Positions 5,685-26,492 are shown, counted from the stretch's first letter. The stretch: DNA of 43,776 bases from a virus (IMGVR_UViG_2537562190_000013), one strand, 5' to 3'. Notes: generated by a model from the letters alone, not told the origin. Program-made: numbers and translations.

Positions 5685-5740
5685 TTTCTTTACCTTCAGG
5701 ATTATATTAGCTATTCTGATACTTAGGCTACCAGAGCATT

Positions 5741-9412: not shown

Positions 9413-10588
9413 CTACTTTTTGCAATTACTTGTGAGCGTTGTTGAGCTGTGGTTGTCATAATCACTCAAGTAACGCCCATAATGACGAAACAACATTTCG
9501 GGCCCCTTATGCCCCATCTGCCCTGCTAGCCAGAAGAGATTAGCTCCTTGGCTAATGTACTTAGTAGCATAAGTGTGCCTGGTCTGATATGGGTTTCTGT
9601 AGCGAATACCTGCTTTTCGCAATGTTGGCACCCATGCTTTTTTCCTGATTGCATCAGCACTTGCCCAAGGCTTATTGGTCTTTGGATCTTCAAAGACCGT
9701 AGCATCTTTCATGAACGTAAATGGCTTCTGATTTATCAGCGCCAACATTGCCTCTTCTGTCAGTTCAACTTTACGAGTACCGGCTTTTGTTTTGGTCCCT
9801 TTGATAACACCAACAACACTTGCGCTCTGGACATGTGCTGTTTTTCCAACAAAGTCGATATCACGCCATCGAAGGGCACATAGTTCAGAACTACGCAGGC
9901 CTGTATGTATAGCGAACCGGAACAGATTTTCCCATTGTTTGTTTCCGGCTGCTGCTAGTAATGCATCAACTTCTGCTGGTGATAGCGGATCAACCACATA
10001 GCTGCTTTCTGCTTCTGACTTATCACTTTGGTAGCGCGAAGCTGTTACTAACGATACGGGGTTAATTTGAAGTACCCCATCGGTCACGGCTTCATCAAGT
10101 GCTGACCGCAGGAAAGATAACTGGTTGCGAATGGTTTTTAAGGTTGTTTTCTGGCTTTGAATCCACGCTTTCAGGGTTGCTGGTGTTAATTCACTTGCAG
10201 GGCAAATGTGAAGTGAGGCTAACGCACTACGGCATTTTTTATAGCCACCAATCGTAGAGGGTGAAAGTTTTCTTGTTTCGCAGATTTCAAGATATTCGTC
10301 CAGGTACATCTTTACCGTTTTGCCTGCAGCAGCATTACCAAAAATTTTCAAACGAGCAGAACGGGGAAAATATTCTGCATAAATGAATGTTCCCCTTTCG
10401 ATCTTATTATGGATTTCGCCGAGTGTACGCTCGGCGTATTTAATGTTCTTTGGTGTTACTTCCAGATTGGAAAGCGGCTCACGACATCTAACTCCTTTGT
10501 AGGTGAAAGTTATATTGATCGTTTCGCCCTGGCGGTGTTTCCTGATTGTTACGCCGCGCGGTAGTTTGAGCAGTTTTGTCTGGCCCAT
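9413..10588 (-). CDS. int: Prophage tyrosine integrase
   Basis: 391-aa ORF with C-terminal catalytic-domain-like motifs (...HTGLRSSEL..., ...TRHTYAT..., ...LAGQMGHK...); overlaps the upstream xis-like gene. Confidence 0.85.
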   Translation of the reverse strand: MGQTKLLKLPRGVTIRKHRQGETINITFTYKGVRCREPLSNLEVTPKNIKYAERTLGEIHNKIERGTFIYAEYFPRSARLKIFGNAAAGKTVKMYLDEYLEICETRKLSPSTIGGYKKCRSALASLHICPASELTPATLKAWIQSQKTTLKTIRNQLSFLRSALDEAVTDGVLQINPVSLVTASRYQSDKSEAESSYVVDPLSPAEVDALLAAAGNKQWENLFRFAIHTGLRSSELCALRWRDIDFVGKTAHVQSASVVGVIKGTKTKAGTRKVELTEEAMLALINQKPFTFMKDATVFEDPKTNKPWASADAIRKKAWVPTLRKAGIRYRNPYQTRHTYATKYISQGANLFWLAGQMGHKGPEMLFRHYGRYLSDYDNHSSTTLTSNCKK

Positions 10589-10755
10589 TTTGCAACCTCA
10601 CTAAGATCAATCCACCTCTCCTTAACGCCTTCAACCTTTAAAACCTGAACACCTTCACGCCAAACACCGCGCTGTACACGTTTGTTTATTGCTTCAGGAG
10701 TTTCGCCAGTTTCTTTGCAATAAGTTGAGATAGGAACACAATCGAGGTTCAGCAT
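10549..10755 (-). CDS. xis: Excisionase-like small DNA-binding protein
   Basis: Small basic ORF overlapping the int 5' end, the usual xis-int arrangement. Confidence 0.6.
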   Translation of the reverse strand: MLNLDCVPISTYCKETGETPEAINKRVQRGVWREGVQVLKVEGVKERWIDLSEVAKWARQNCSNYRAA

Positions 10756-10814
10756 ATGTTTCTCCACTTAGCCCGCTGCACATGGGCAGTAATATCAAAT
10801 TCCAGTCCTGATAA

Positions 10815-11030
10815 TTAATTTTGTTCTCTGGTTGCTACTTGTTTTATTGGCCTGATGCTGTCCAGTAGCAGACGGCGACGCATGTTAGGTGCACCCCAAC
10901 GGTAACCAGTCTTTTTGTCGTAGGATTCACAACGTCCGGCAACCCAGGACGTTTCAGTGGAATGTAATTTCATCCGCTTTTCACCGTCTCGGGTGATAAC
11001 AATTCCTGTATGAGTTTTTATCACGCTCAT
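10815..11030 (-). CDS. Hypothetical early-left protein (YfdT-like)
   Basis: 71-aa ORF, stop/start coupled to the next gene. Confidence 0.4.
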   Translation of the reverse strand: MSVIKTHTGIVITRDGEKRMKLHSTETSWVAGRCESYDKKTGYRWGAPNMRRRLLLDSIRPIKQVATREQN

Positions 11031-11389
11031 TTCTTAGTCTCTGGTGCTTTCGGCATTACTGCCCAGTGAGTGATATTGACGTTTTCAAGGTCCCCGACCT
11101 GAAATGTCCACTGCCATTCTCCGGTTTCTTTTTGTCCCCAGGTGTACCAGAGAGAACGCCAGCCAATCAGCCAGCCTTCTCCGTTAGCATCAAATAACAG
11201 AACACTTTCATTTGCTGGAGGCAGTTCAGCTGACACTGGTATTATTTTGCTTTCCAGTGCCGCACATTTAGCTTCAAGCGCGTCGAATTTACGTACCAGG
11301 TACTCAGCATTTGTTTCGTTCACTTTCAGATCTCGCGGTACACATCTCCCACGAAGAAACCCTTCCATTTCGAAAACATTCATGCGCAT
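11027..11389 (-). CDS. Prophage protein with DUF551-like C-terminal region (YfdS-like)
   Basis: 120-aa ORF; Trp-rich C-terminal segment WLIGWRSLWYTWGQKETGEWQW. Confidence 0.5.
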   Translation of the reverse strand: MRMNVFEMEGFLRGRCVPRDLKVNETNAEYLVRKFDALEAKCAALESKIIPVSAELPPANESVLLFDANGEGWLIGWRSLWYTWGQKETGEWQWTFQVGDLENVNITHWAVMPKAPETKK

Positions 11390-11928
11390 TTGCGTAACTC
11401 CGATAACTCGTTAAAACGTTCCATAAACATCCCGTAGGCATGGCCCGGTGCCAGTGGAATCACGTTGAACATCTCTGTTGCCGGGATGCCTTCCAGTACA
11501 GGCCAGAAAGAGCCATCATCAAGCCCGAGATCGCGGCGTTCGGTTGCCAGCATGATGAGATCGGCATATTTCACAGGCGTGCTCATAACCGGGGGTAACC
11601 CGTATTTCTCACGGATTACGGCGTCTATTTTTTCTTCCATCCGTTTATAGTCAGGAAGAAGGCGTTTCAGTGGTGCGGGGATGTCCTGGCAATACGCTTC
11701 TGTTGCATCATGCATTAACGCTTCAAAAGCAAATTCCTGCGGTACCAGCTGGCTGCAAAGCACCGCATGTTGGGCGACGCTGTAGAAGTGTGAAAGATGG
11801 CCGGCAAAGCGACAGATATTTGAAAGGGAAACCGCGATATCGTTAATATCGATGTTGTCTTTATTTATCCTGTCATAATAAAAATGCTTCCCGGAAAAAG
11901 TTTTAATAAATGACATTTTGTTCTCCAC
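11380..11928 (-). CDS. yfdR: HD-domain phosphohydrolase (YfdR-like 5'-deoxynucleotidase family)
   Basis: H..H and HD motifs (VAQHAVL, LMHDATEAY); translation matches recalled CPS-53 YfdR. Confidence 0.65.
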   Translation of the reverse strand: MENKMSFIKTFSGKHFYYDRINKDNIDINDIAVSLSNICRFAGHLSHFYSVAQHAVLCSQLVPQEFAFEALMHDATEAYCQDIPAPLKRLLPDYKRMEEKIDAVIREKYGLPPVMSTPVKYADLIMLATERRDLGLDDGSFWPVLEGIPATEMFNVIPLAPGHAYGMFMERFNELSELRKCA

Positions 11929-12044
11929 GTTATATGCGCTGCACCGCGCTGAATTTTGGTTAAAGAAAACCCTCGCCTTCAGGCGATTATTGAGTCAATT
12001 ACGTTTCCATAAATGCCCCCGCAGGGGCATTTGCGGTAATGAAA

Positions 12045-12869
12045 TCAGGCGGTGAAAGTCCCAATAAAGGTTTCTACTTTGCTGTCCTTGAATTTCTCAA
12101 CAAGCAGATCACGAAATTCGTTAGCCATATCTTCCTGCACCGCTTCCAGCTGAATAATGCGTAGAACCAGTACCGGACGATCGCCAGTGATAATGCTGAG
12201 GCGTAATTTAAACGGACGTTCTTTCAGACCTTCAAACGGAACGCATTTAAACTCAAATGCCACTGGCATAATGTCTTTGGTCTTCGCTTCGACAGACTCC
12301 ATCAGGGAGCGTTTGCCGCTGAAGTCATTATCTTCAAAATCAGCAGTCTGGTTTGCTTCAATCGTGATTTTACGGACCGCCGCAGCCGCTTTTGTTGCCT
12401 GAATGGTGTCACCATTAGCATCAAAGCCCACAAGGTAGTCGGCCCAGTCTTCAATCCATTCTGCCAGTGACTTCTGGGAGTTACGCTCGCCATTAACAGA
12501 CAACAGAGCAGAGAACGGCGCTGCCTTTTTCAGTTTGAGAGTGGCGGTGTTATCTGCGTGACCTGGTTCATCAATAGTACCCAGGTTAAGCACACTGACG
12601 GCACGCATATTATCAGCATCGATAAAGCAGCGGGTGCCTTCATCTGCAAGATCTTTAGAATAACGGGTAAAGTCATCGATGCTGGCAGTGGAAAGCGCAC
12701 CACGGAAACGGAAGCGATTTAAATTAAATTTTTCCAGATCATGAATGCGGAAATTTTCAGGTAATGCCACTGCGTCGGCACCAATCTTACTGATAATTTC
12801 ATTAACACCCTGAGCAGAAATAAGGGCATGGATTTGATTAATTGCGGTTGCGTCTAAGTTCTGAGACAT
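12045..12869 (-). CDS. yfdQ: DUF2303-family prophage protein (YfdQ-like)
   Basis: 274-aa ORF; recalled similarity to CPS-53 YfdQ. Confidence 0.55.
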
Positions 12870-12933
12870 AATAAGTCCTCACTATATAAAATATTCAGTG
12901 ATGAGATAAATAATCAGTTAATTAAAAACGATA

Positions 12934-13314
12934 TTAATGACCTGCTGCGCGGAGTTTTCCGTCAGGTTCACCGGCAAGAGTCAGTAATTGTCCCTGGTCT
13001 TCCTGCAGAATAGTCAGGCGACCACCGCGATTGACATACATCGGCGTTTCGGTGGTGTCTTCTTCAGAAATTTTCCCGCGGTTAGTCGGGCGAACATATG
13101 AGAGTTTGTGTTTGATTTTCACACGGTTCTCATCAAATGGTTCGATTTCCAGGTTGAGTGAGACCTTACCTTTGGTTTTCGTGTTCATCACACCGGAAGC
13201 GACTTCACTGAGAACTGCGCCGATTTTGGTTTCAAATACGCCGCCGTCCAGCTCCCCGATAAATGCCTGCACATCAGTACTGCGTTCGCTAGCCATTTTG
13301 CTGCTCCTCATCAT
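12934..13314 (-). CDS. Hypothetical early-left protein (YfdP-like)
   Basis: 126-aa ORF. Confidence 0.45.
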   Translation of the reverse strand: MMRSSKMASERSTDVQAFIGELDGGVFETKIGAVLSEVASGVMNTKTKGKVSLNLEIEPFDENRVKIKHKLSYVRPTNRGKISEEDTTETPMYVNRGGRLTILQEDQGQLLTLAGEPDGKLRAAGH

Positions 13315-13733
13315 ATCGACCCTGCAAGGCCGATTAGTTTCTCCACAAAACAGAGAAGAACACCTGCGGTGGCAGCCGCCCGGATGGATTGGGTTATGAG
13401 CCCGTCGTCCGGTGATGCTCTTCTCTGTTTTGTAAAAAGGACGCTACCAGCCGGAAGCAAGGGTACAAACTGGTACCGCCAGGACTACACACAGCATAAA
13501 GTTGTGGTGCCGGGTGCCTCCCGGTGCCTGGCGAAGGTTGCACACCAGACGGGTGGGTATCCACAGAAGGTCGACTGTCAGCCTCAACCTTAACCCGCGT
13601 GCGCTGAGCCGCATTCACCACAACGCTAAGGATTCTCTTTGGTTGAAAATACTTAGCTGTTATGTGCCTGTCTTTTCACCACTTCAGGCTCGGTGGTATC
13701 CTTTTAAGCCCGTATACATAAAAGGAAAATCAA

Positions 13734-13979
13734 ATGACTTTTGATGAAAAAGAACTTGATAATGCAATTAATAAAATCATCGTAACGTCGCTCTTTTCCT
13801 GTCTCAGCGACACTCAGCAGAAACGGTTCTACGAATCGGCTTTCAACATGATCGAGCGTTGTTGTTTCTGCGATGCCGACGAGTTACCTGAAAAAATCAG
13901 GAAACAGTTGGCTGATGCTCTTCGAGTGCGACTTTCTGACCAATTTTCTGAAATGTGCTCTCCGAATTTGGACAAATAG
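13734..13979 (+). CDS. Hypothetical small protein
   Basis: 81-aa ORF with AAGGA ribosome-binding site 7 nt upstream; convergent overlap with 13897-14172. Confidence 0.4.
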   Translation: MTFDEKELDNAINKIIVTSLFSCLSDTQQKRFYESAFNMIERCCFCDADELPEKIRKQLADALRVRLSDQFSEMCSPNLDK

Positions 13980-14172
13980 AAAAAGGCCATTTCCATTCAG
14001 GGTCTGATGGAAATACTTCAGCCTGTTCCAAAGCACGGCGTAAAGAGAACACAACTCCAGCCATAATCTGATGTTTCCCATTGGTCCAGCTATCGCCGCT
14101 CTGATCTACAGGGGCGGCTATGTCGTATGACCAAACGACTTCACAGTTATTGTTTAAAATCTGGACTTTCAT
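13897..14172 (-). CDS. Hypothetical protein, first gene downstream of the putative leftward early promoter (N/rex position), not N-like
   Basis: ATG at 14172 with AGGTG ribosome-binding site; 91 aa; no arginine-rich motif. Confidence 0.45.
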   Translation of the reverse strand: MKVQILNNNCEVVWSYDIAAPVDQSGDSWTNGKHQIMAGVVFSLRRALEQAEVFPSDPEWKWPFSICPNSESTFQKIGQKVALEEHQPTVS

Positions 14173-14299
14173 TTCATACACCTGCTTTAACATGAGTGCC
14201 TGATGGCACAACATGACTCAACGAATCATCCTGGACTTCATATGCCCCAGGCGGCTACTTCGTGGGCGTCCTGCCTGTTCGTTATCTTTGATATAAAAT

Positions 14300-14313
14300 C
14301 TAACTTAACTTAG
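14300..14313. promoter_or_regulatory. Operator-like site CTAACTTAACTTAG (oL-like) overlapping a candidate leftward promoter
   Basis: Shares the CTAA-N5-CTTAG pattern with the two sites in the cI-cro intergenic region. Confidence 0.45.
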
Positions 14314-14378
14314 TTATTATGGCAAGAGAAAACACCAAACTTTTCTTAGTTCGGTGCCTTAGTTAGAGAAGAGAGGTC

Positions 14379-15005
14379 TTAGAGTTCGTATTGAACTCCT
14401 TTGACTACACCAATGATAAGGCAATTACCATTGATAGGGATGTTGGGATACCGAGGATTTAATGGCACTAAAAACTTTTGAGGGCCATCGATGACTAATT
14501 TTTTTACTGTAGCTTCGTTTGTTCCATCAAGTCGAGCGATGACTATTTTTCCATGACGAGGTTCTGCATCTGGATCTACAATCACTGTTGCGCCTTCTGG
14601 TATTGTTGGGAGGCCATTAGGGTTAGTCATGGAGTCACCTTTAACCTCTAATGCAAATGAGTTATCACCAATCTTTAATGATGTATCTACCCACTTGTCC
14701 ACTTCACTAAACACTTCTGCTGCCCTGCACTCAGTAAACTGCCCAGCCTGAACCCACGATATTACAGGAACTCTGCGCATGTTTGTGACGAGTTTGCCTT
14801 CAAACTCAGCACCATAAAGAATGTAATCTATTGACGTATTGAAGAACTTCGCTAATTTCGAAAGTGCCTCCCCACCAGGGGTATTGATGTCTTTCTCCCA
14901 GTACCCCACAGCAACGTCGCTTACTCCACAAAATTTACCCAATTCTTTCTGGGACGTTCCGGTAACTCTTCTCAGAGCTTTTATACGCTGACCAACCGTT
15001 TCCAT
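14379..15005 (-). CDS. cI: CI-like prophage repressor (N-terminal HTH, C-terminal S24 LexA-like peptidase domain)
   Basis: HTH segment QKELGKFCGVSDVAVGYWEKD; S24-like GDSM serine motif and C-terminal Lys (VKKL); divergent from a cro-like gene. Confidence 0.85.
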   Translation of the reverse strand: METVGQRIKALRRVTGTSQKELGKFCGVSDVAVGYWEKDINTPGGEALSKLAKFFNTSIDYILYGAEFEGKLVTNMRRVPVISWVQAGQFTECRAAEVFSEVDKWVDTSLKIGDNSFALEVKGDSMTNPNGLPTIPEGATVIVDPDAEPRHGKIVIARLDGTNEATVKKLVIDGPQKFLVPLNPRYPNIPINGNCLIIGVVKGVQYEL

Positions 15006-15027
15006 AGGAGCACCATTTCTTGAATTG

Positions 15028-15090
15028 CTAAGTAATCTTAGTTTTTATTGACCAAAGATAGATTTGTAATTAGCATCTAATAAAACTTAG
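15028..15090. promoter_or_regulatory. oR-like operator region: two 14-bp sites CTAAGTAATCTTAG (15028-15041) and CTAATAAAACTTAG (15077-15090) between cI and cro
   Basis: Palindromic half-sites CTAAG/CTTAG in the divergent promoter region. Confidence 0.5.
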
Positions 15091-15102
15091 TTTGGAGGGC
15101 GT

Positions 15103-15303
15103 ATGACAACTGACGATATCGAAAGCTACTTCGGCAGTATTGAGAAAGTTGCTGCTTTTTTCGGCATAACAACTGAAGCCGTTTATCAGTGGCGAAACCG
15201 TCCGGGCCAGTTAATTCCAAAAGGACGTGCAGCAGAAGCTGCATATAGAACTTGCGGACGGTTGCCATTTAAACCTGAGCTTTATGAAAAATCTAATGGA
15301 TAA
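15103..15303 (+). CDS. cro: Cro-like small HTH regulator (YdaS-like)
   Basis: 66-aa ORF, GGAGGG ribosome-binding site, divergent from cI; HTH-like segment AAFFGITTEAVYQWRN. Confidence 0.7.
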   Translation: MTTDDIESYFGSIEKVAAFFGITTEAVYQWRNRPGQLIPKGRAAEAAYRTCGRLPFKPELYEKSNG

Positions 15304-15892
15304 ATCGATTAACAGAAACCACAGAACGATGAGGCTAACCGTGGGTAAGCATCACTGGAAAGTAGAAAAACAGCCTGAGTGGTACGTGAAAGCTGTCAGA
15401 AAAACTATCGCAGCGTTGCCGGGTGGTTACGCTGAAGCAGCTGACTGGCTGGATGTAACAGAAAACGCATTATTTAACCGCCTTCGTGCCGATGGCGATC
15501 AGATTTTCCCGCTGGGATGGGCAATGATTTTGCAACGTGCTGGTGGAACTCACTTCATTGCTGACGCTGTGGCGCAGTCTGCAAATGGCGTCTTTGTGTC
15601 TCTTCCTGACGTCGAGGATGTGGACAACGCCGATATTAACCAGCGCCTGCTGGAAGTCATTGAACAGATTGGCAGTTATTCCAGACAGATTCGTTCGGCA
15701 ATCGAAGACGGTGTGGTGGAACCGCATGAGAAGACAGCAATTAACGACGAGCTGTATCTCTCAATTTCGAAGCTGCAGGAGCATGCAGCACTGGTCTACA
15801 AAATCTTTTGCATTTCAGAAAGTAATGACGCCCGCGAGTGTGCAGCTCCGGGCGCCGTGGCGTGTCGTGACTGTGGAGAAACTAACGCATGA
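15296..15892 (+). CDS. CII-position regulatory protein (YdaT-like), start uncertain
   Basis: ATG overlaps cro stop (ATGGATAA); ORF continues to 15892. Confidence 0.45.
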
Positions 15893-16227
15893 ACAGTTTA
15901 ACAACACACTACCGTCGCTCGCAACTGATTGCGCTTCCTGTACCGGGTGGAAAAGCGAAGGTGGAGTATTGCTATGCAGTTAATGTACCAGGTGACAGGG
16001 AAATTGTAACCCACAGCTTTGCTGAGTGGGCTGTGGGTGATTTCAACCGGCAGAAGGAGACAGTCCTTTGCGACAAGTTAACCGCTGGTTCAAAGATCAC
16101 TACGGAGTGCCCGTCAGAGTCATTCGTTGGGAGCCGGAAACACAACGAGTTATCTACCTCCGCGAAGGCTATGAGCATGAGTGCTTCAGCCCGCTCGAAC
16201 AGTTTCGTCGTAAATTCAGGGAAATAG
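15889..16227 (+). CDS. Hypothetical protein; 3' part may be frameshifted (alternative frame 16041-16247 looks more protein-like and ends overlapping the next start)
   Basis: Frame-1 ORF of 112 aa; a frame-3 segment [34 protein letters not shown] has no start codon. Confidence 0.4.
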
Positions 16228-16236
16228 AGGTCGGTC

Positions 16237-17178
16237 ATGAGCACTAAATTAACCGGCTATGTATGGGATGGTTGCGCTGCATCAGGCATGAAATTATCCA
16301 GCGTGGCAATTATGGCCCGCCTGGCTGATTTCAGTAATGACGAAGGTGTGTGCTGGCCATCAATTGAAACTATTGCCCGTCAGATTGGCGCGGGGATGAG
16401 TACCGTCAGGACGGCTATCGCACGGCTGGAAGCAGAAGGCTGGTTAACGCGTAAGGCGCGTCGCCAGGGTAACCGCAATGCGTCGAATGTTTATCAGCTT
16501 AACGTTGCGAAGCTTCAGGCAGCGGCATTTTCTCAACTGTCAGATTCTGACCCGTCAAAATCTGACGCATCAAAATCTGACCCGTCAAAATTTGATGCGT
16601 CGAAATCTGGCAAAAAAGCGGGTTTTCACCCGTCAGAATCTGGCGGGGATCCGTCAGTAAAATCAAAACATGATCCGTCAGATAAAAAACCTTCTCGTCC
16701 GGACGCTTCGCAACCGGACACGCAGACGGATGAACAGGATTTTTTAACTCGCCATCCTGATGCGGTTGTATTCAGCCCTAAAAAGCGCCAGTGGGGAACG
16801 CAGGATGATTTGACCTGCGCACAGTGGCTCTGGAAAAAAATCATCGCCCTGTACGAGCAGGCCGCCGAATGTGACGGCGAGGTGGTTCGTCCCAAAGAAC
16901 CGAACTGGACAGCCTGGGCAAACGAAATTCGCCTGATGTGTGTGCAGGATGGTCGTAATCATAAACAAATCTGCGAGATGTACAGCCGCGTCAGTCGCGA
17001 TCCGTTCTGGTGCCGTAACGTGCTCAGCCCGTCGAAGCTGCGGGAAAAATGGGATGAGCTTTCCCTGCGCTTATCGCCGTCCATCAGCACATACACAGAA
17101 AAACGCGAAGACCCATATTTCAAATCCAGTTACGACAACGTGGACTACAGCCAGATCCCGGCAGGATTCAGGGGGTGA
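16237..17178 (+). CDS. Replication initiator (lambda O-like role) with N-terminal HTH and internal iteron-encoded peptide repeats
   Basis: N-terminal HTH-like SVAIMARLADFSNDEGVCWPSIETIARQIGAGMSTVRTAIARLE; repeat DPSKSDASKSDPSKFDASKS encoded by the iterons. Confidence 0.7.
   Translation: MSTKLTGYVWDGCAASGMKLSSVAIMARLADFSNDEGVCWPSIETIARQIGAGMSTVRTAIARLEAEGWLTRKARRQGNRNASNVYQLNVAKLQAAAFSQLSDSDPSKSDASKSDPSKFDASKSGKKAGFHPSESGGDPSVKSKHDPSDKKPSRPDASQPDTQTDEQDFLTRHPDAVVFSPKKRQWGTQDDLTCAQWLWKKIIALYEQAAECDGEVVRPKEPNWTAWANEIRLMCVQDGRNHKQICEMYSRVSRDPFWCRNVLSPSKLREKWDELSLRLSPSISTYTEKREDPYFKSSYDNVDYSQIPAGFRG
16541..16690. repeat. Putative replication origin: about 5 tandem 15-bp iterons (around TCAAAATCTGACCCG) followed by related spaced copies and an A-rich tract
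   Basis: Direct repeats containing CCGTCA(A/G)AAT(C/T)TG at 16552, 16582, 16630, 16651, 16675; lies inside the replication gene as in lambda ori. Confidence 0.6.
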
Positions 17179-17669
17179 GCATGAGTCTTTTGAATGAAGT
17201 TCAGAAATTCATTGAAGCCCATCCGGGCTGTACTTCCGGAGACATTGCGGATGCTTTTGCAGGTTACTCACGGCAGCGCGTTCTGCAGTCAGCAAGCAAG
17301 TTACGTCAGAGTGGGCGTGTGGCTCACTATTGTGAAGGGGATACACGCAGACATTTCCCGCGCCTGACTGAGAGAGCGCAGGAGCCGGAACCGCAACCAG
17401 TTCGTGAAACCAGACCTGTGCGCAATTTCTATGTCGGCACTAACGATCCACGGGTGATTTTGTGCCTGACCCGCCAGGCTGAAGAACTGGAGTCCAGGGG
17501 CCTATACCGTCGTGCTGCAACGGTGTGGATGGCGGCATTCCGTGAAAGCCACTCCCAGCCAGAACGAAACAATTTTCTGGCGCGTCGTGAGCAGTGCTTA
17601 CAGAAAAGCAGCAAGCGCGCTGCATCGGGTGAAGAGTGGTATCTGTCAGGGAATTACGTGGGGGCTTAA
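17175..17669 (+). CDS. PerC-family regulator-like protein
   Basis: C-terminal LESRGLYRRAATVWMAAF...FLARREQCL resembles the PerC/Pch signature. Confidence 0.5.
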   Translation: MSMSLLNEVQKFIEAHPGCTSGDIADAFAGYSRQRVLQSASKLRQSGRVAHYCEGDTRRHFPRLTERAQEPEPQPVRETRPVRNFYVGTNDPRVILCLTRQAEELESRGLYRRAATVWMAAFRESHSQPERNNFLARREQCLQKSSKRAASGEEWYLSGNYVGA

Positions 17670-18322
17670 TGAGTAATAAATATTGCCAGGCGCTGGTGGA
17701 ACTGCGGAACAAACCAGCCCATGAACTGAAGGAAGTGGGCGATCAGTGGCGCACGCCGGATAACATTTTCTGGGGAATTAACACCCTGTTTGGCCCGTTT
17801 GTTCTGGATCTGTTCACTGACGGTGATAACGCCAAATGTGCCGCGTATTACACGGCGGAAGACAACGCGCTGGCGCATGACTGGTCAGAACGTCTTGCGG
17901 AGCTTAAAGGTGCTGCCTTTGGTAATCCCCCATACAGCCGCGCCAGTCAGCATGAGGGGCAATACATCACAGGCATGCGTTACATCATGAAGCATGCCAG
18001 TGCCATGCGTGATAAAGGTGGGCGCTATGTTTTCCTGATCAAAGCTGCCACCAGCGAAGTGTGGTGGCCGGAAGATGCAGATCATATTGCTTTTATTCGC
18101 GGGCGTATCGGTTTTGAACTGCCTGCCTGGTTTATCCCGAAGGATGAGAAGCAGGTGCCGACAGGCGCTTTCTTCGCTGGTGCTATTGCTGTTTTCGACA
18201 AGACCTGGAAGGGACCGGCAATCAGCTACATCGGGCGCGATGAACTTGAGGCATGTGGTGAGGCCTTTCTGGCGCAGGTTCGCCAGCAGGCAGAAAAACT
18301 GGTCAGGGAGATGGTGGCATGA
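17669..18322 (+). CDS. Phage orphan DNA N6-adenine methyltransferase (Dam-like)
   Basis: Catalytic NPPY motif (FGNPPYS); ATG overlaps upstream stop (TAATG). Confidence 0.75.
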   Translation: MSNKYCQALVELRNKPAHELKEVGDQWRTPDNIFWGINTLFGPFVLDLFTDGDNAKCAAYYTAEDNALAHDWSERLAELKGAAFGNPPYSRASQHEGQYITGMRYIMKHASAMRDKGGRYVFLIKAATSEVWWPEDADHIAFIRGRIGFELPAWFIPKDEKQVPTGAFFAGAIAVFDKTWKGPAISYIGRDELEACGEAFLAQVRQQAEKLVREMVA

Positions 18323-18645
18323 CGACGTTAACTCAATGCCAGCAGCAGGTGCTGGATATGCTGATTTCTTATCAGAAAGAACGTGGCTTCCCGCCAACCA
18401 ATCAGGAGGTGGCAACCATGCTGGGATACCGTTCAGTGAATGCAGCGGTAGAACATCTTCGCGCACTGGAGAAAAAAGGCGTCATCACGATAAAGCGTGG
18501 CGTGGCCCGGGGCATCACGCTTCATACCGCGGTGAAGGACGACGACAGCGAGGCGGTCGGGATTATCCGCTCACTGCTTGTCGGTGAGGAAAACGCCAGG
18601 CTGCGTGCAGCCCACTGGTTACATGAGAGGGGCCTGAAAGTATGA
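18319..18645 (+). CDS. LexA N-terminal DNA-binding domain protein lacking the peptidase domain
   Basis: QQQVLDMLISYQKERGFPPTNQEVATMLGYRSVNAAVEHLRALEKKGVI closely parallels LexA residues 1-70; only 108 aa. Confidence 0.7.
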   Translation: MTTLTQCQQQVLDMLISYQKERGFPPTNQEVATMLGYRSVNAAVEHLRALEKKGVITIKRGVARGITLHTAVKDDDSEAVGIIRSLLVGEENARLRAAHWLHERGLKV

Positions 18646-19031
18646 AGCTGATCCTGCCTTTCCCGCCCAGCGTGAACACGTACTGGCGACACCCCAACAA
18701 AGGGGCGTTTGCAGGTAAGAGCCTGATAAGCGCGGCGGGGCGCAAATTCCAGAGCGCGGCGTGTGCAGCAATAGTTGAGCAGTTACGTCGTCTGCCAAAA
18801 CCAACGTCGGCACCTGCTTCAGTGGAGATCGTGTTGTTTCCTCCGGATAACCGGATCCGCGATCTGGACAACTATAACAAGGCGCTGTTTGACGCCCTGA
18901 CCCACGCGGGTGTGTGGGAAGACGACAGTCAGGTGAAAAGAATGCTGGTGGAGTGGGGACCGGTTATCCCGGAAGGGAAGGTCGAGATCACTATCAGTAA
19001 GTACGAGAAACCGGCGGGTGCAGCCGCCTGA
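18642..19031 (+). CDS. rusA: RusA-family Holliday junction resolvase
   Basis: PFPPSVNTYW and DLDNYNKALFDALTHAG...DDSQV motifs. Confidence 0.85.
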   Translation: MKLILPFPPSVNTYWRHPNKGAFAGKSLISAAGRKFQSAACAAIVEQLRRLPKPTSAPASVEIVLFPPDNRIRDLDNYNKALFDALTHAGVWEDDSQVKRMLVEWGPVIPEGKVEITISKYEKPAGAAA

Positions 19032-19050
19032 TTAAGAGGAGAAACGAAGT

Positions 19051-19848
19051 ATGAATAATCTGATGGTTATTGATGGTATTGAAGTTCGTCGTGATGCTTA
19101 TGGGCGTTACAGCCTGAACGATCTGCACAGGGCTGCCGGTTCTCTGGATAAACATAAGCCTGCATTCTGGCTCCGCAATGAGCAAACCGAACGTTTAATA
19201 AGCGAGTTGCAAATTTGCAACTCGGTCAATATGGCGCCAGTTAACGTTATTCGTGGCGGAAATAACCAAGGGACGTATGTCTGCAAAGAACTGGTGTATG
19301 CCTATGCAATGTGGATCAGCCCGTCATTCCATCTGAAGGTGATCCGTACTTTCGATATGGTAACCAGCACACCGGAAAAATTATCCGGGCAGGCTGCTGA
19401 CAAGATGCAGGCTGGCGTGATCCTGCTGGACTTTATGCGCCGGGAGTTAAATCTGTCTAACTCTTCAGTGCTTGGTGCCTGTCAGAAACTCCAGGAGGCT
19501 GTTGGCTTACCGAATCTGGCACCGCGCTATGCCATTGATGCTCCTGCTGACGCGCCTGATGGCTCAAGCCGCCCCACGCTGTCACTGAGTGCACTGCTGA
19601 AGCAGTATGGTATCCGCCTGACAGCTAATCAGGCATATCACCAGATGGCGAAGCTGGGGATCGTTGAACAACGCGAACGATACAGCCGTACCGCGATTAA
19701 CAACATCAAAAAATTCTGGTCGCTGACGGCGAAAGGCTGCATGTTCGGCAAGAACATCACCAGTCCTGCAAATCCGCGCGAGACGCAGCCGCATTTCTTC
19801 GAATCCCGATTCCCTGAGCTGTTAAAGCTACTCGATACCGTTCATTGA
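19051..19848 (+). CDS. KilA-N domain protein (antirepressor-like)
   Basis: N-terminal KilA-N-like region ...YSLNDLHRAAG...KPAFWLRNEQTERLI... Confidence 0.6.
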   Translation: MNNLMVIDGIEVRRDAYGRYSLNDLHRAAGSLDKHKPAFWLRNEQTERLISELQICNSVNMAPVNVIRGGNNQGTYVCKELVYAYAMWISPSFHLKVIRTFDMVTSTPEKLSGQAADKMQAGVILLDFMRRELNLSNSSVLGACQKLQEAVGLPNLAPRYAIDAPADAPDGSSRPTLSLSALLKQYGIRLTANQAYHQMAKLGIVEQRERYSRTAINNIKKFWSLTAKGCMFGKNITSPANPRETQPHFFESRFPELLKLLDTVH

Positions 19849-19849
19849 G

Positions 19850-20845
19850 GTGACCGTGAGAGCACTACTGACCCCTGAAATTGCCCCGCGTATGGGGATC
19901 GTATTGTTCAGGCCAGGTTCAGAGCTGATGCCCCTGTTTATGCAGGGGCGTGTCCTGCTGGAGCCAGAGCCGGAACGTTATTCATCTTTCGCCAGTGGTG
20001 CCGTTCCGGCGGCAACACAACCGCTGGCGGATGATCCTGCCGTTCGGACCGTGTTCCGCAATGAGGCAGTGATCCGTCGTGCTGGTGGCGTGGAATGTCA
20101 TGAAAGCTGGTTACTTCGTGAAAAGGGCTGTCAGTGGCCTCATTCTGACTGGCACAGCGAGAACATGACCACAATGCGGCACGCTCCGGGAGCAATTCGT
20201 CTGTGCTGGCACTGCGATAACCAGCTGCGTGACCAGTTCACGGAACGGCTGGAATCAATGGCAACGGATAACTGTGCCCGCTGGGTGTTGTCTGTCGTGC
20301 GTCGGGATCTCGGTTTTGATGACAGTCACGTTGTGACAATGCCGGAACTGTGCTGGTGGCTGGTTCGTAATGATCTGGCGGATGCCTTACCGGAAAGTGC
20401 AGCCCGTAAGGCACTGAGATTACCGAAGCCTGTTGTGCCATCTGTCACCCGGGAAAGTGACCTTGTGCCTTCGGTTCCTGCCACCAGCATCATCCAGGAT
20501 AAGGCGAAAAAGGTGCTGGCGCTGAAAGTGGATCCGGAGTCGCCGGAGTCTTTTATGTTACGCCCAAAACGTCGCCGCTGGGTTAATGAAAAGTACACGC
20601 GCTGGGTTAAGACGCAGCCGTGTGCATGTTGTGGAAAGCCTGCTGATGATCCCCACCATCTGATAGGCCACGGTCAGGGGGGAATGGGTACAAAAGCGCA
20701 TGATCTCTTTGTGTTGCCTTTGTGCAGAAAGCATCACGACGAGCTGCATGCGGATACCGTGGCATTTGAAGAGAAGTATGGCTCCCAGCTGGAGTTGATA
20801 TTTCGTTTTATCGATCGTGCGCTGGCAATTGGTGTGCTGGCCTGA
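19850..20845 (+). CDS. DUF968-family prophage protein (YdfU-like) with C-terminal Cys/His cluster
   Basis: CACCGKPADDPHHLIGHG...LCRKHHDELH motif block. Confidence 0.6.
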   Translation: MTVRALLTPEIAPRMGIVLFRPGSELMPLFMQGRVLLEPEPERYSSFASGAVPAATQPLADDPAVRTVFRNEAVIRRAGGVECHESWLLREKGCQWPHSDWHSENMTTMRHAPGAIRLCWHCDNQLRDQFTERLESMATDNCARWVLSVVRRDLGFDDSHVVTMPELCWWLVRNDLADALPESAARKALRLPKPVVPSVTRESDLVPSVPATSIIQDKAKKVLALKVDPESPESFMLRPKRRRWVNEKYTRWVKTQPCACCGKPADDPHHLIGHGQGGMGTKAHDLFVLPLCRKHHDELHADTVAFEEKYGSQLELIFRFIDRALAIGVLA

Positions 20846-20847
20846 TT

Positions 20848-21219
20848 TTGTGGAGAAAGTTGATGCGTGATATGTATGAAGTAATGGATCGTTGGGGAGC
20901 TTGGGCTGCTTCAGACAATAGCGGAGTGGACTGGCAGCCGATAGCGGCTGGTTTCAAGGGACTTTTACCTCATGGCAAAAAGTCACGGATTCAGTGTGAT
21001 GATGACGAAGGCATCATGATAGACAGTTGTGTGGCTCGGTTGAGAAGGTATAAACCAGAGGAATATGAGCTCATCATCGCCCACTTTGTTATCGGTATCT
21101 CATTACGCACTATTGCGAAGAAGAGAAAATGCTCTGATGGCACAATTAGGAAGGAACTGCAAACTGCAATGGGGTTTGTTGACGGCTGTTTAGCAATGTT
21201 AGCTTATAGTATGGCATAA
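20848..21219 (+). CDS. Q: Late-gene antiterminator Q (small Q family)
   Basis: MRDMYEVMDRWGAWAA...WQPIAAGFKGLL... pattern recalled from E. coli prophage Q proteins; sits upstream of the lysis cassette. Confidence 0.7.
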   Translation: MWRKLMRDMYEVMDRWGAWAASDNSGVDWQPIAAGFKGLLPHGKKSRIQCDDDEGIMIDSCVARLRRYKPEEYELIIAHFVIGISLRTIAKKRKCSDGTIRKELQTAMGFVDGCLAMLAYSMA

Positions 21220-22413
21220 AAAATAAAATAGATTTACTGCCGATTTTTCAAAAAAGACTGGGAACTGTTTATATCCAACGTAAATAAGGCCTCCATAAAA
21301 CATGGCTGATGCGAGATATTTAACAGTTCTCATCCTTTTTTTAGCTTTATCAATCAAACCTGTAATGCTACTCTTAATACTATCTGCATTATCTTTGATT
21401 TCTTTATTTTCTTCAAACTTTAAATACTTATCGAAAGCGGACTCCACTCGAGAACGTAAGTTGTCGAATGTTTCATTGAATATCTCAATAGAAATGTAAT
21501 TGACTTTTTTTATCATCCAAAGTCCTGCGATAATCAATATTGCTTCGGTTGTTTCATTAGCCTTCACTAAGCCACCAGCAGCTATTAATGCACCGGGAAT
21601 AGTCAATGCTTTTGTCTGATTAGATGATATGAATTCGTTAATTTTACTCGTGAACTCAAGATTTTTCTCATCGAGTTCGTTAAGAATTTTATTTACAGAA
21701 AACCTCTTTGTGTAAATCTCATATAGTTCATCATATTTTTTCCTGACGAGTTCAGTAGAGTTAAGCAAGTCAAAGAAATTGAACGTACCATTTGCTTTAA
21801 ATACTTCGTTTATGGCTGAGCGTATAACGAGCTTGCGCTCGCTTTTGTGTAAATCATTGATTTTTATTGTGTCGAGAAGCTCCTTTATAATTTCATATTT
21901 AAGAGACGAGTTCGATAAGCGATTAATCTCGCTATATTGTAAAAAATGCGTGAGTTCGACTGTATAACTTTTGTCTTCATTGGTGAAAAATAAGACAGAG
22001 CAGTCACTGTTATGATGATCAGCAATTAATGAAAGGATATCTTTCCACATAAAGAAAATATGGATTTTTTCGATGCTTTCATTCTTAGAAGTAGGGAGTA
22101 TTAACGGCGTTCCGATGATATAATTTTTCGGAAGAGCGTTTTGGGTGTTTACTCTAGACCAAAAAGACTCAACATTCTCATAAATTATAGCGTCATCCCA
22201 AGATGAAGCTTGGCGATCTAGCCAAATTTCATTATTTTCGATGCAGGTTGTTGCCTTTTTATAACCTATAGATTGTAACAGTCTAATTATTTCAGAACTA
22301 TTTACAATAACAATGCTTTCTTCAAGACTTATGACAGTGTAGTAGCCCTCAACTCTGCTTGAGGCTCCGTTAATAATCTGCGCTAATCTTGATAAGTCAT
22401 CAGCAATTGTCAT
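21199..22413 (-). CDS. Hypothetical protein with C-terminal hydrophobic segments; second gene of Q-lysis cassette
   Basis: 404-aa AT-rich ORF; hydrophobic stretches ALTIPGALIAAGGLV, AILIIAGLWMI, LASAMFYGGLIYVGY; 3' end overlaps the Q 3' end convergently. Confidence 0.6.
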   Translation of the reverse strand: MTIADDLSRLAQIINGASSRVEGYYTVISLEESIVIVNSSEIIRLLQSIGYKKATTCIENNEIWLDRQASSWDDAIIYENVESFWSRVNTQNALPKNYIIGTPLILPTSKNESIEKIHIFFMWKDILSLIADHHNSDCSVLFFTNEDKSYTVELTHFLQYSEINRLSNSSLKYEIIKELLDTIKINDLHKSERKLVIRSAINEVFKANGTFNFFDLLNSTELVRKKYDELYEIYTKRFSVNKILNELDEKNLEFTSKINEFISSNQTKALTIPGALIAAGGLVKANETTEAILIIAGLWMIKKVNYISIEIFNETFDNLRSRVESAFDKYLKFEENKEIKDNADSIKSSITGLIDKAKKRMRTVKYLASAMFYGGLIYVGYKQFPVFFEKSAVNLFYFLCHTIS

Positions 22414-22415
22414 TA

Positions 22416-23591
22416 TTAGCTGTCTCTATATCTTTTGAGTTCATCATAATTTGCCTGACTCAATTTTATCACAATTTCGCATTTGTTGTCAGTGAGAATT
22501 ACAGGCTTATTTGACTTTTCGTCTCCAATAGCTCCACGCATTATTTTCAACTTAAAATTATTGTCGTTATCTGCCACTTCAATTGTAAGCGCGCTTTCAG
22601 CTGCTTTAGGAGTTGGTTCAAATTGAGGGTCAATCTGGAAACCATTAAGATTAACAAAATCGACAAACGTTCCCTTACATTTGTGTGAATCAGTCAGGCA
22701 TGAGTCAATTATTTTTGAAATATCCTCTATCTTAACGGACTTATTTCCGTGTTTATCTTTTGATTTTTTTTCCAGTAAGGATTTAACTTCATTGTCAATA
22801 GTATCACGCAGTACACGACCGAGTGAGTTTTTACTAGCAAAAATATCTATAGCACTGAATAATTGCTGAATGCTTCTTTTATTGTCCGAATCATGTCGGC
22901 AACCTAATGAGTCTTTGAAAAAATCGCTTTTAGATTTACCTTGCAAGAAATGTACATATGAGTCACCCTTGTTTTCTGGATAACTGGCTTCGAATAAAGT
23001 TAAATCGAACATCGCAGCCTGCCGTAAGGCATCGGTATTAATTGGATTTAATCTTGTTGGGGTCAACTTATCCGAATCAAAGTCATAGGCGCTTTGTTTA
23101 TCAACCATTACGATTAGAAGTTTCCCCAAATCCTCTGGTTCGGTAGACTTATAGTGGATGAAAACAACGCTCCCCCCCTGAAGTTGGGCAACTCTCGATT
23201 CGTTATTAGCATTATGTTTAAGCTTCTCTATTATAGCTCTAGATAAATCAATGAATTCATTATTTTTATTAATGTATTTTTTTAGGATCGTAGGAATGGA
23301 TGAAGGGTTGTGATCTGAGTCTAGGAAGTTATGAAATTTGTTTTTTCGGCTAAATTTTTTCTCAATTCTGGTTATGAATTCAGATGTGACTTCATTTTTT
23401 AGATCCCAAACTTCACCTAATCGATAATCAAATGCTCTTGAATCATTTTTTTCAAGATTTGCTGTTACAGCACCAATAGGAAAGTACGATTGTTTGCCCA
23501 GCACTACAACATGAGGCGTGGCACCGCATTTATCGCAAGCTACAGTTGGGTCGTCAAGAACATTGCCACATTCTAAACAAGTTATATCCAT
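22416..23591 (-). CDS. Zinc-ribbon plus NdpA/YejK-like (nucleoid-associated protein family) domain protein; first gene of Q-lysis cassette
   Basis: N-terminal CLECG...CDKCG; central GGSVVFIHY ... DLTLFE ... YVHFLQGKSKSDFFKDSLG block resembling the YejK family as recalled. Confidence 0.55.
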   Translation of the reverse strand: MDITCLECGNVLDDPTVACDKCGATPHVVVLGKQSYFPIGAVTANLEKNDSRAFDYRLGEVWDLKNEVTSEFITRIEKKFSRKNKFHNFLDSDHNPSSIPTILKKYINKNNEFIDLSRAIIEKLKHNANNESRVAQLQGGSVVFIHYKSTEPEDLGKLLIVMVDKQSAYDFDSDKLTPTRLNPINTDALRQAAMFDLTLFEASYPENKGDSYVHFLQGKSKSDFFKDSLGCRHDSDNKRSIQQLFSAIDIFASKNSLGRVLRDTIDNEVKSLLEKKSKDKHGNKSVKIEDISKIIDSCLTDSHKCKGTFVDFVNLNGFQIDPQFEPTPKAAESALTIEVADNDNNFKLKIMRGAIGDEKSNKPVILTDNKCEIVIKLSQANYDELKRYRDS

Positions 23592-23708
23592 TATATATCC
23601 CGAATTATAAGAATGAATTTTTATGTGGCTGAAAATTCTATCAAAACACTAACGCGTACGCAAAAAGTATTGTATTGTGTTAAGAGTGGTTACTTCGCCA
23701 CACAGCTT

Positions 23709-23740
23709 AAACCCGCCGTCGAGCGGGTTTTGTCGTTTCT
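23709..23740 (+). terminator. Intrinsic terminator hairpin (tR'-like) upstream of lysis genes
   Basis: Perfect 8-bp stem AAACCCGC/GCGGGTTT with 6-nt loop followed by TGTCGTTTC. Confidence 0.55.
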
Positions 23741-23882
23741 GGGCCTGGGGATTCGTTGGGCCTAGTCTATCCCGCAGTTATCCATTGGCTCGGCTTCTTT
23801 GACGTTTCCGCTTCTGATTTGCGGTACATGATGTTTCCTCAATTTGCACCTGCTGTATCAGCGAGGTGAGAGATAACTACAA

Positions 23883-24209
23883 ATGCCTCATAACCCAAAT
23901 ACTTGGCTGGAGTTGGTCCAGAGCTGGTGGCGTGGAGACACACCGCTGGGCGCAGTGATTATGTCGATCGTTATGGCTGGCTTGCGCATTGCCTATTTTG
24001 GCGGTGGTGGTGGCTGGAAGAGAAAAACGCTCGAGATTTTGCTCTGTGGCGCTCTGACGCTGACCTTTGCATCCGCGCTTGAGTATGTCGGATGGCCTAA
24101 ATCGCTTTCTGTTGCCATTGGTGGTGGCGTTGGGTTGATCGGTGTCGATGCTATTCGTGGGGCTGCAATGAGAGTAATCGGTAACAAGTTTGGTGGCTCT
24201 AAGGAGTAA
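23883..24209 (+). CDS. Holin
   Basis: 108-aa protein with hydrophobic segments and Gly-rich region, directly upstream of endolysin; GAGGTGA ribosome-binding site. Confidence 0.7.
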   Translation: MPHNPNTWLELVQSWWRGDTPLGAVIMSIVMAGLRIAYFGGGGGWKRKTLEILLCGALTLTFASALEYVGWPKSLSVAIGGGVGLIGVDAIRGAAMRVIGNKFGGSKE

Positions 24210-24212
24210 TTT

Positions 24213-24689
24213 ATGCAGGTACTAAATTCCCAGCGTAAAGCTTTCCTGGATATGGTGGCATGGTCAGAAGGAACGGATAACGGGCGACAACCGACACGTA
24301 ACCACGGTTATGACGTTATTGTCGGTGGCGAACTCTTCACTGATTACTCCGATCACCCTCGCAAACTTGTCACGCTAAACCCGAAACTCAAATCAACAGC
24401 TGCAGGCCGTTATCAACTTCTTTCACGTTGGTGGGATGCTTACCGCAAGCAGCTTGGGCTGAAAGACTTCTCTCCCAGAAGCCAGGACTCAGTGGCATTA
24501 CAGCAGATTAAAGAGCGTGGCGCTTTACCGATGATTGACCGCGGCGATATTCGTCAGGCAATCGACCGTTGCAGCAATATCTGGGCTTCACTGCCGGGCG
24601 CTGGTTATGGTCAGTTCGAGCATAAGGCTGACAGCCTGATTGCAAAATTCAAAGAAGCGGGCGGAACGGTCAGAGAGATTGAGGTATGA
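24213..24689 (+). CDS. R: Endolysin, lambda R-type lytic transglycosylase
   Basis: Near-identical by recollection to lambda R ([20 protein letters not shown]...[23 protein letters not shown]...). Confidence 0.9.
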
Positions 24690-25123
24690 GCAGAGTCACC
24701 GCGATTATCTCCGCTCTGGTTATCTGCATCATCGTCTGCCTGTCATGGGCTGTTAATCATTACCGTGATAACGCCATGACCTACAAAGAGCAGCGCGATA
24801 AAGCCGCATCCATCATCGCTGATATGCAGAAGCGTCAACGTGATGTAGCAGAACTCGACGCCAGATACACAAAGGAGCTTGCTGATGCTAACGCGACTAT
24901 CGAAAGTCTCCGTGCTGATGTTTCTGCTGGTCGTAAGCGCCTGCAAGTCGCCGCCACCTGTGCAAAGTCAACGACCGGAGCCAGCAGCATGGGCGATGGA
25001 GAAAGCCCAAGACTTACAGCAGATGCTGAACTCAATTATTACCGTCTCAGAAGTGGAATCAACAGGATAACCGCGCAGGTTAACTACCTGCAGGAATACA
25101 TCAGGACGCAATGCCTGAAATGA
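24686..25123 (+). CDS. Rz: i-spanin Rz
   Basis: N-terminal membrane anchor then coiled-coil region; matches lambda Rz as recalled; overlaps endolysin stop. Confidence 0.85.
24879..25070 (+). CDS. Rz1: o-spanin Rz1 lipoprotein embedded in Rz (+1 frame)
   Basis: Lipobox LVVSAC followed by Pro-rich segment. Confidence 0.75.
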
Positions 25124-25158
25124 TCGGGCGATGAAAACCAAAAAAACAGGAGCAATAC

Positions 25159-25434
25159 ATGACTAAGCTTTATCACCGCATCTCAGCTTTTCTCTCTGGG
25201 TGCTGGGCGTTTATCACGTCTATTTCGTTCGTCATCTTTAGTTTCGGTAGCACAGCATGCTCGCTTAGTCGGGGTCTGTGGCGTGCTATTTCAGCACTAG
25301 CGCCGAAATTTTTACCTGAAAAGGTTGTTTGGCGAATTGTAGAGCGAATGTGTAGTGAGAGCGTTCGCGAGAAGATTAACGTATTTGGACGTCATCCTCG
25401 AAATACAGGCGCATTGTGCAGTTCGTTACTGTAG
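25159..25434 (+). CDS. Hypothetical small protein
   Basis: 91-aa ORF with AGGAG upstream; no recognised motifs. Confidence 0.35.
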   Translation: MTKLYHRISAFLSGCWAFITSISFVIFSFGSTACSLSRGLWRAISALAPKFLPEKVVWRIVERMCSESVREKINVFGRHPRNTGALCSSLL

Positions 25435-25552
25435 TCATTACAAAGCCCATCTTTGGGTTTGGTTTGTAATTTCGCTGCTGCAATAATCACCAGAAATATG
25501 GCATTGTAATTGGTGGTCATATGTCATACCCATCAATTACAAAGGAGCAGAC

Positions 25553-25804
25553 ATGTCATCTACAAAATTAGTTAAAACTATCCTTTTCCATGGAGATAAT
25601 AAATATGAAGTTTATGCAACCTCCGAGTACGCTGACGTAGATAGAATCATTCATTACAAGTTACGCTCATGTAAAAACACAGATGGTTCAGATGGCAAGT
25701 CTGAATCTATATGGGTTGTATATAATCCTGCTGTTCAATTACCGGATGATCTGAACTACAAAAAAGTTAGCAACATAGCTCCTTATCTTGAAAAGTTACA
25801 ATAA
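25553..25804 (+). CDS. Hypothetical small AT-rich moron protein
   Basis: 83-aa ORF with AAGGAG ribosome-binding site, followed by a terminator, flanked by direct repeats. Confidence 0.5.
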   Translation: MSSTKLVKTILFHGDNKYEVYATSEYADVDRIIHYKLRSCKNTDGSDGKSESIWVVYNPAVQLPDDLNYKKVSNIAPYLEKLQ

Positions 25805-25823
25805 ACTTCCTTTTCCACATGCT

Positions 25824-25850
25824 AAAAGCCTCGTATTCGCGGGGCTTTTT
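25824..25850 (+). terminator. Intrinsic terminator after moron ORF
   Basis: Stem AAAGCCUCG/CGGGGCUUU with UAUUCG loop then U-tract. Confidence 0.5.
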
Positions 25851-26016
25851 ATTGTCATTACAAAAGCCACTCCCTACAGAGTGGCTTTGATAATGGTTTA
25901 TACCCTACACGGGATAACTTAACTGATATCCCTTTTAACGGATAAACGGAGCCAACAATGGCAGAGAATGTCGGCATTATGGCAGTTAAATTTGGATAAA
26001 TCGGAGATTAGTACAT

Positions 26017-26367: not shown

Positions 26368-26492
26368 TAATAATTCTCAACTGTCTGAGGGGAGGGGCGG
26401 GTCAAATCCCTGTGACCTGACGTCTTCCGGACTGCCCGCCCCATCGTTTTTTTATACCCGCGAAAAATGAAATTTAACCAGGAGTGCCGCAT

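Follow-up and report, generated by a model that had tools for sequence, protein, structure and literature searches.

Gene organization of the locus

The analysed stretch of DNA, called the window here, comprises 43,776 nt and contains an SfV/mEp460-type lambdoid prophage. Its genes follow the order CI (minus strand), cro, cII, a small ORF, an O-like HTH_36 replication protein, a PerC-like protein (yfdN), Dam, the LexA-like gene, RusA, KilA-N, DUF968/YdfU and Q; the features relevant here are compiled in Table 1. The LexA-like gene overlaps both of its neighbours. The TGA of Dam and the ATG of the LexA-like gene overlap in the sequence ATGA at 18319-18322, and an overlap of the same kind (ATGA, 18642-18645) joins the LexA-like stop codon to the RusA start codon. 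A consensus scan of the interval from the pR-like site to Q revealed neither a plus-strand promoter nor a convincing terminator, for which reason we infer that the LexA-like gene is a delayed-early member of the rightward operon, expressed on induction or infection and silent in the quiescent lysogen. Public names for this module are inconsistent: in RefSeq phage records, Dam appears as 'phosphoadenosine phosphosulfate reductase', following PHROG 33262.

Table 1. Coordinates of the LexA-like gene, its domains, neighbouring prophage features and SOS-box cassettes at loci of relatives (L numbers)
Feature	Position	Strand	Evidence or remark
Protease-less LexA-like gene (108 aa)	18319-18645	+	ATG-to-TGA ORF, PHROG 362, Pfam
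Winged helix-turn-helix, LexA-type (residues 1-68)	18319-18522	+	Pfam, AF2 model, Foldseek
Acidic linker HTAVKDD (residues 69-75)	18523-18543	+	low confidence, pLDDT <50 at residues 71-75
C-terminal two-helix hairpin (residues 76-108; hairpin 76-104)	18544-18642	+	AF2 model, family alignment
Upstream phage N6-adenine DNA methyltransferase (Dam)	17669-18322	+	PF05869 1.1e-45, TIGR01712 1.7e-76
Downstream RusA Holliday-junction resolvase	18642-19031	+	start overlaps LexA-like stop
Prophage CI repressor, S24-type	14379-15005	-	Peptidase_S24 match
pR-like promoter candidate 5' of cro	15048-15076	+	consensus scan only
Q	20848-21219	+	
SOS-box cassettes at relatives (examples)	L025:2797-3435, L003:4520-5000, L008:3500-4000		e.g. 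TACTGTTTATTTATACAGTA

Besides these genes, the window carries other cargo. Between Q and the holin, a two-gene insert on the minus strand (21199-23591) encodes a 404-aa protein, for which no Pfam or PADLOC match was found, and an NA37-family (PF04245) nucleoid-associated protein of 391 aa. The insert seems AT-rich, and its location would suit a moron or possibly a defence island; at the matching position, an E. coli relative (L001) has different cargo. A further island (415-9162) is separate from the prophage and lies to the left of the prophage integrase (9413-10588). It encodes a histidine-kinase-like ATPase carrying a HEF_HK domain and a 'Response_reg_2' (PF19192) protein. A pair of IS3-family transposases occupies 3539-4752, another tyrosine integrase is encoded at 5741-6994, and the ParA-like ATPase at 8311-9162 gives a weak PADLOC match to PDC-M28B.

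Domain architecture and structure model

The original prediction, a LexA DNA-binding domain encoded without the autocleavage domain, is borne out. Residues 1-65 match the whole 65-position Pfam model PF01726 (LexA_DNA_bind) with an E-value of 2.9e-19 and 69 bits, the cut-off being 23.7 bits, and Pfam detects no Peptidase_S24 (PF00717) match in the 108-aa protein; the prophage CI does match this model. With the LexA equivalog TIGR00498, the score of 67.8 bits remains below the curated cut-off of 110.95 bits, and only model positions 1-91 of 203 are aligned. The closest solved structures are E. coli LexA chains (1lea, 7e-16, gapless over residues 2-69). A marginal PADLOC match of a CARF model over the helix-turn-helix (3.5e-4) was disregarded.

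The AF2 model of the protein has a mean pLDDT of 79.6 and a pTM of 0.54, the placement of the tail relative to the domain being uncertain in the monomer. The modelled domain consists of helices 6-22, 28-35 and 40-52, the last of which is the recognition helix (RSVNAAVEHLRAL), and of two wing strands (56-59 and 65-68) carrying the invariant R64-G65-I66; the tail is modelled as helices 75-87 and 93-103. By Foldseek, residues 1-68 superpose on the LexA-DNA complex 3jso_B (rmsd 1.3 A over 68 residues, 50% identity), and the search returned no solved-structure match to the C-terminal tail.

Where the protein departs from LexA becomes apparent from a profile alignment of the family with E. coli LexA (hhalign, probability 99.7%), which covers LexA residues 1-87 only. 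The alignment ends just past the Ala84-Gly85 cleavage site, and up to residue 87 the tail aligns positionally with the LexA hinge and the cleavage-site stretch. The Ala-Gly self-cleavage site itself is not conserved: the window protein has V-G at the aligned position, close relatives have A-G or A-N, and distant relatives have neither. We also considered the tail as a cleavage-site decoy for the LexA/CI peptidase, an idea that was rejected as a family feature, the 'A-G-E' of close relatives reading V-G-E here and being absent from distant members.

Essentially, the protein amounts to the N-terminal piece of an already cleaved LexA, extended by a new C-terminus. Where LexA has the S24 peptidase/dimerisation domain, it carries a conserved, family-specific helical hairpin of 30 residues, and tail residues 76-104 possibly serve as a dimeriser. 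Since the S24/autocleavage domain is absent, RecA-stimulated self-cleavage cannot remove the protein.

Recognition helix

The residues by which E. coli LexA contacts DNA are Ser39, Asn41, Ala42, Glu44 and Glu45 (PMC3091678). Alignment to LexA with inspection of the recognition helix, the check proposed along with the original prediction, gave a divided answer. In the window protein, these positions read S, N, A, V and E, so that four of the five contacts are kept (S39, N41, A42, E45) and the fifth, Glu44, is a valine. Overall, the helix RSVNAAVEHL shows two differences to LexA (RSPNAAEEHL), P40V and E44V.

Loss of the glutamate is a family trait. Among 55 tail-bearing relatives with 14 distinct helix variants, none has Glu at position 44, which is occupied by V, A, F, T, L or Y, whereas Glu44 is present in 9 of 12 full-length LexA-like proteins sampled from the same search. 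Those full-length LexAs that lack it look divergent or paralogous and have non-canonical helices. We also noted P0211, a full-length LexA-like protein of 209 aa with a VAAG cleavage motif, an S24 region and the helix SINAAVTHL, thus with Val at the Glu44 position as in the window protein. It may be a divergent LexA paralogue, and any known binding motif of it would give a clue to what Val44 reads.

Helix positions 43-45 vary by clade (VE, AE, FE, TD, AL, FI, AS). By contrast, Ser39 and the R64-G65-I66 wing are the same in all members, and Asn41 in nearly all; several other clades (SPNAAAEHL) are, like the window clade, only one to two residues away from the LexA helix. Because Ser39, Asn41 and the wing are conserved, DNA binding should surely be retained. 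It seems doubtful that the specificity is identical to that of LexA, and one target common to the whole family appears unlikely: the clade-varying positions 43-45 argue against all members reading one and the same site, such as the enterobacterial SOS box, which is invariant.

Search for operators in the window

No exact SOS box (CTGT-N8-ACAG) is present in the 43,776-base window. Boxes with one mismatch occur 19 times, with 13.5 expected, which is not significant. Over the whole window, we counted two palindromes of the type CTGT-N(2-16)-ACAG, where shuffled sequences gave 7.2 on average (sd 2.6), a deficit of about 2 sd that is only suggestive of an avoidance of LexA-type sites. One of the SOS-like boxes with a single mismatch (CTGTATATAAAGCCAG, 5329-5344) lies within an unannotated 138-aa ORF.

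A search for exact palindromes (arms of 6-7 bases, spacers of 0-12) in the non-coding DNA of 9000-26500, which includes the early and late regulatory regions, revealed no repeated or conserved palindromic operator. The exact palindromes that were found resemble terminator stems, with GC-rich arms and T tracts, or isolated AT-rich sites. As the phage's own genome has no exact box, and near-matches only at chance level, the targets of the protein, if it reads LexA-like boxes, lie elsewhere.

Distribution and conservation

As a sequence, the gene is not new; it is already catalogued and very common. Of 5426 complete E. coli genomes, 2233 (41%) carry the 327 bp at >=95% identity. The public name is 'LexA family transcriptional regulator', with the accession WP_000210173.1 for an identical E. 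coli copy, and the PHROG 362 profile covers the protein over its full length (5.4e-59, residues 1-108 against all 106 profile positions). The same profile also matches distant tail-bearing relatives. In phage collections, the 1.5-kb segment from Dam to RusA was recovered from 51 records by DNA and the protein from 61 records by tblastn. Phage carriers include SfV (orf42, 'unknown'), SfII, SfIV, mEp460, the cdtI phage and Stx2a/Stx2c converting phages, with copies 95-99% identical in protein, and relatives occur in Salmonella, Citrobacter, Hafnia and Klebsiella. The dN/dS ratio is 0.13 against a Shigella copy and 0.16-0.36 against relatives of 40-50% identity, indicating purifying selection.

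We found no functional study of the enterobacterial protein in the literature; a genomics survey of Stx phages merely lists a 'pham' with pfam01726. In some records, the peptidase-less protein is mislabelled as 'SOS-response repressor and protease LexA' or 'RecA-mediated autopeptidases'. Such database names are homology labels, some of which are wrong for a protein without the peptidase.

The wider family and its gene neighbourhood

A profile search over 1.84 billion representatives yielded tail-bearing full-length relatives with 38-47% identity, and neighbourhoods were obtained from exact-protein look-ups of six relatives and from two viral-contig scans. All relatives follow a common plan of LexA domain, linker and a hairpin with a kept hydrophobic pattern, in which A97 and L101 are invariant. 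Every located relative is encoded in the early-right (nin-like) lambdoid region, between the replication genes and Q and 5' of DUF968, a location that is the same in seven distant relatives and more than 50 loci.

The original prediction had emphasized translational coupling to the upstream Dam gene. The overlap is real, yet the stress on Dam was misplaced, as the upstream neighbour varies in the relatives and can be Dam, a large C5-type methylase, a replication protein or small ORFs. In most sampled lineages, the gene is followed by RusA, usually with a 4-base overlap; exceptions have a 67-aa ORF or an inserted reverse gene in between, and in the Klebsiella-type clade (L021-L042) the locus contains no RusA. 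Given the variable upstream neighbours, the linkage to Dam is incidental; that to RusA is frequent without being obligatory.

A variant of 158 aa is encoded at 3501-3977 in the loci L052-L059. Here, the LexA domain (residues 1-69, helix RSPNAAASHL) is fused to an unrelated C-terminal domain of about 90 residues that has no match in Pfam and belongs to PHROGs 29443 and 24920. The variant gene is ATGA-coupled to RusA and preceded by a gene for a 460-aa Dam-domain protein.

SOS-box promoters upstream of relatives

In 30 loci of the Klebsiella type and related ones (L003, L008, L016-L042 and L049), a canonical LexA-box promoter is located a few hundred bases 5' of the homologue. Its layout is that of a sigma-70 promoter following a rho-independent terminator, with a -35 element and, across its -10 element, a complete TACTGT-N8-ACAGTA box; among the 30 loci, the arms of the box are kept and the spacers vary. 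The genes after the box encode DinI (PF06183, in most loci), a conserved ORF of about 80 aa (PHROG 1813), the LexA-like protein and a 67-aa ORF (PHROG 1212). Being preceded by a LexA-box promoter, the homologue in these phages should respond to SOS induction in the lysogen as well, beside the RecA modulator DinI.

This arrangement connects the family with SOS circuitry, subject to two caveats. First, the box is canonical while the helix of the homologues varies, so that it is most simply a host LexA site and no proof of binding by the homologue. Moreover, the SOS-box-DinI-X cassette is also found 5' of NinB in mEp237, SPN3UB and Chris1, which lack a homologue at that spot; the SOS association is hence partly positional, and DinI linkage loses weight as proof of an SOS role.

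Two further boxes were observed in this survey. In Shigella flexneri (CP182557.1, L011), a perfect 20-bp SOS box (TACTGTTTTTATATACAGTA, 1104-1123) lies within the coding sequence of an S24-type CI-like repressor (639-1331, minus strand), in the inter-domain linker region. LexA acting within a cI gene would be unusual, if this box is functional. A similar box (CTGTTTTTACATACAG) is located at about position 998 of the Citrobacter sp. FP75 locus (L013), at a comparable distance 5' of the LexA-like gene.

Possible roles of the LexA-like protein

According to our best-supported proposal, which we consider possible though short of probable, the protein is a RecA-insensitive mimic of the host SOS repressor that is expressed early in the lytic programme and acts on LexA-box-like sites outside its own genome. 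It would be produced only on prophage induction or infection, when host LexA is already cleaved. Pairing would be brought about by the hairpin, aided by wing-wing contacts on the DNA, and the paired protein would occupy LexA-box-like sites with CTGT-type half-sites, the exchange of Glu44 to Val probably shifting or loosening specificity or affinity. Because the phage's own genome is without such sites, the targets would be found on the host chromosome or on co-resident elements, i.e. SOS genes or LexA-controlled functions of other mobile elements. Repression would thereby be re-imposed in a form that RecA* could not lift. Two known cases are in keeping with this: the bare N-terminal fragment of LexA keeps some SOS-box binding and repression, and its removal by ClpXP is needed to complete induction (PMC10584840); and NinH, encoded in the nin region of lambda, is a mimic of the host protein Fis (PMC7166090). 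Occupancy of SOS boxes immune to RecA, as originally predicted, thus gains from the LexA-like helix and the missing cleavage domain, but is called into question by the loss of Glu44, the clade differences at positions 43-45 and the lack of the dimerisation domain.

Nearly as likely, if still rather doubtful in itself, is that the captured LexA domain has drifted to an operator of its own and, as a regulator private to the phage, activates or represses a promoter of phage or host that has no relation to SOS boxes. Such a course has a precedent in gp6 of GIL01 (PMC6182141), although gp6 is unrelated by BLASTP, has no tail and was captured independently. The family-wide loss of Glu44 and the clade-variable positions 43-45 would fit a private operator, as would the non-canonical helices that accompany a residue other than Glu at position 44 in full-length LexAs. 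Yet the helix of the window clade differs from that of LexA only by P40V and E44V, and the search for exact palindromes in non-coding early and late regulatory DNA offered no repeated or conserved one as a candidate operator.

The recurrent neighbourhood raises the question if the protein is a transcription factor at all, or rather an accessory DNA-binding or DNA-bending factor for nin-like recombination/replication that works with RusA, perhaps also with Dam. ATGA coupling to RusA recurs in most lineages, among homologues of 38-50% identity and with a variable upstream gene, and persists in the L052-L059 variant despite its different 90-aa C-terminal domain; lambda NinH, beside the Rap/NinG resolvase, provides a precedent (PMC7166090). 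We nevertheless regard this as improbable. The entire clade L021-L042 has the homologue and no RusA in the locus, and adjacency to RusA is weak evidence because lambdoid nin gene order is conserved anyway. Conversely, RusA is widespread without a LexA-like partner, as in rusA of E. coli DLP12 and in phage 82. In addition, the invariant S39 and nearly invariant N41 suggest base-specific reading. Least credible of all, and largely refuted by the conservation data, is a functionless, decaying remnant of a captured lexA. The protein does end roughly at the LexA cleavage point, with hhalign covering only LexA 1-87, but a remnant would hardly agree with dN/dS values of 0.13-0.36, a length and tail kept across genera at 38-47% identity, the maintained overlaps of start and stop codons and a gene carried by 41% of complete E. 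coli genomes.

Returning to the mimic of the host SOS repressor, a more far-reaching form of the idea would be an SOS 're-repressor' out of reach of inactivation by RecA. Encoded in about 40% of sequenced E. coli and produced from the moment of prophage induction, it would re-occupy LexA boxes after host LexA has been destroyed. We rate this as unlikely. If it were true, error-prone polymerases and other LexA-controlled functions would be silenced, whether chromosomal, plasmid-borne or in competing prophages, and mutagenesis, antibiotic tolerance and prophage competition would be shaped as a result; the Klebsiella-type DinI-X-LexA-like cassette would then be a lysogen-expressed version of the same SOS damper. 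The SOS response, which is defined by destruction of LexA, drives mutagenesis, induction of prophages and of Shiga toxin, and antibiotic tolerance. An indestructible LexA DNA-binding domain would provide a hitherto unrecognised means of braking or re-wiring this response, and prophages carrying the gene are present in about two in five sequenced E. coli, Stx2-converting phages included. If, instead, the protein reads a private operator, it would represent the second, independent capture of a LexA domain by a phage as its own regulator, after GIL01 gp6. Since the gene is already catalogued, the value of the present analysis lies in a hypothesis and not in gene discovery; the hypothesis is cheap to test and touches on SOS, Stx-phage induction and prophage competition.

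Comparison with known systems

The family is the same as PHROG 362 and NCBI's 'LexA family transcriptional regulator', with no structural difference. [quoted passage not shown] Unlike LexA, it lacks the S24 peptidase/dimerisation domain and with it Ser119 and Lys156; it has Val in place of E44, Asn in place of R28 and Val in place of P40, and continues after about residue 87 as a hairpin. In sequence extent, it nearly equals the LexA autocleavage fragment (residues 1-84). The natural fragment, however, has a newly exposed ClpX signal and is degraded, whereas the phage protein runs into the hairpin and ends in ...ERGLKV, from which we infer that it should be free of an exposed ClpX recognition signal.

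Lambda NinH, too, is a small protein whose gene lies between those for replication and Q; it copies the DNA-binding part of a global DNA-binding protein of the host and is encoded beside a junction resolvase (PMC7166090). It differs in fold, has Fis rather than LexA as its host model and shows no sequence relationship. A further parallel may be drawn to gp6, the truncated LexA homologue of the Bacillus tectivirus GIL01, which activates the late promoter P3 at its own palindrome GaCACAnnTGTGaC (PMC6182141). Like the window protein, gp6 is phage-encoded, and has a LexA DNA-binding domain without the remainder of LexA; it is an early gene product acting after loss of host LexA (PMC6182141), as the window protein is predicted to be. 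In contrast to the window protein, it has 66 aa and no tail, descends from a Gram-positive LexA and acts at a defined operator that is not an SOS box. BLASTP gave no alignment between the two at E<=100, and only the generic LexA-domain pattern is common to both. The protein described here counts as another, independently derived 'phage-encoded truncated LexA homologue'.
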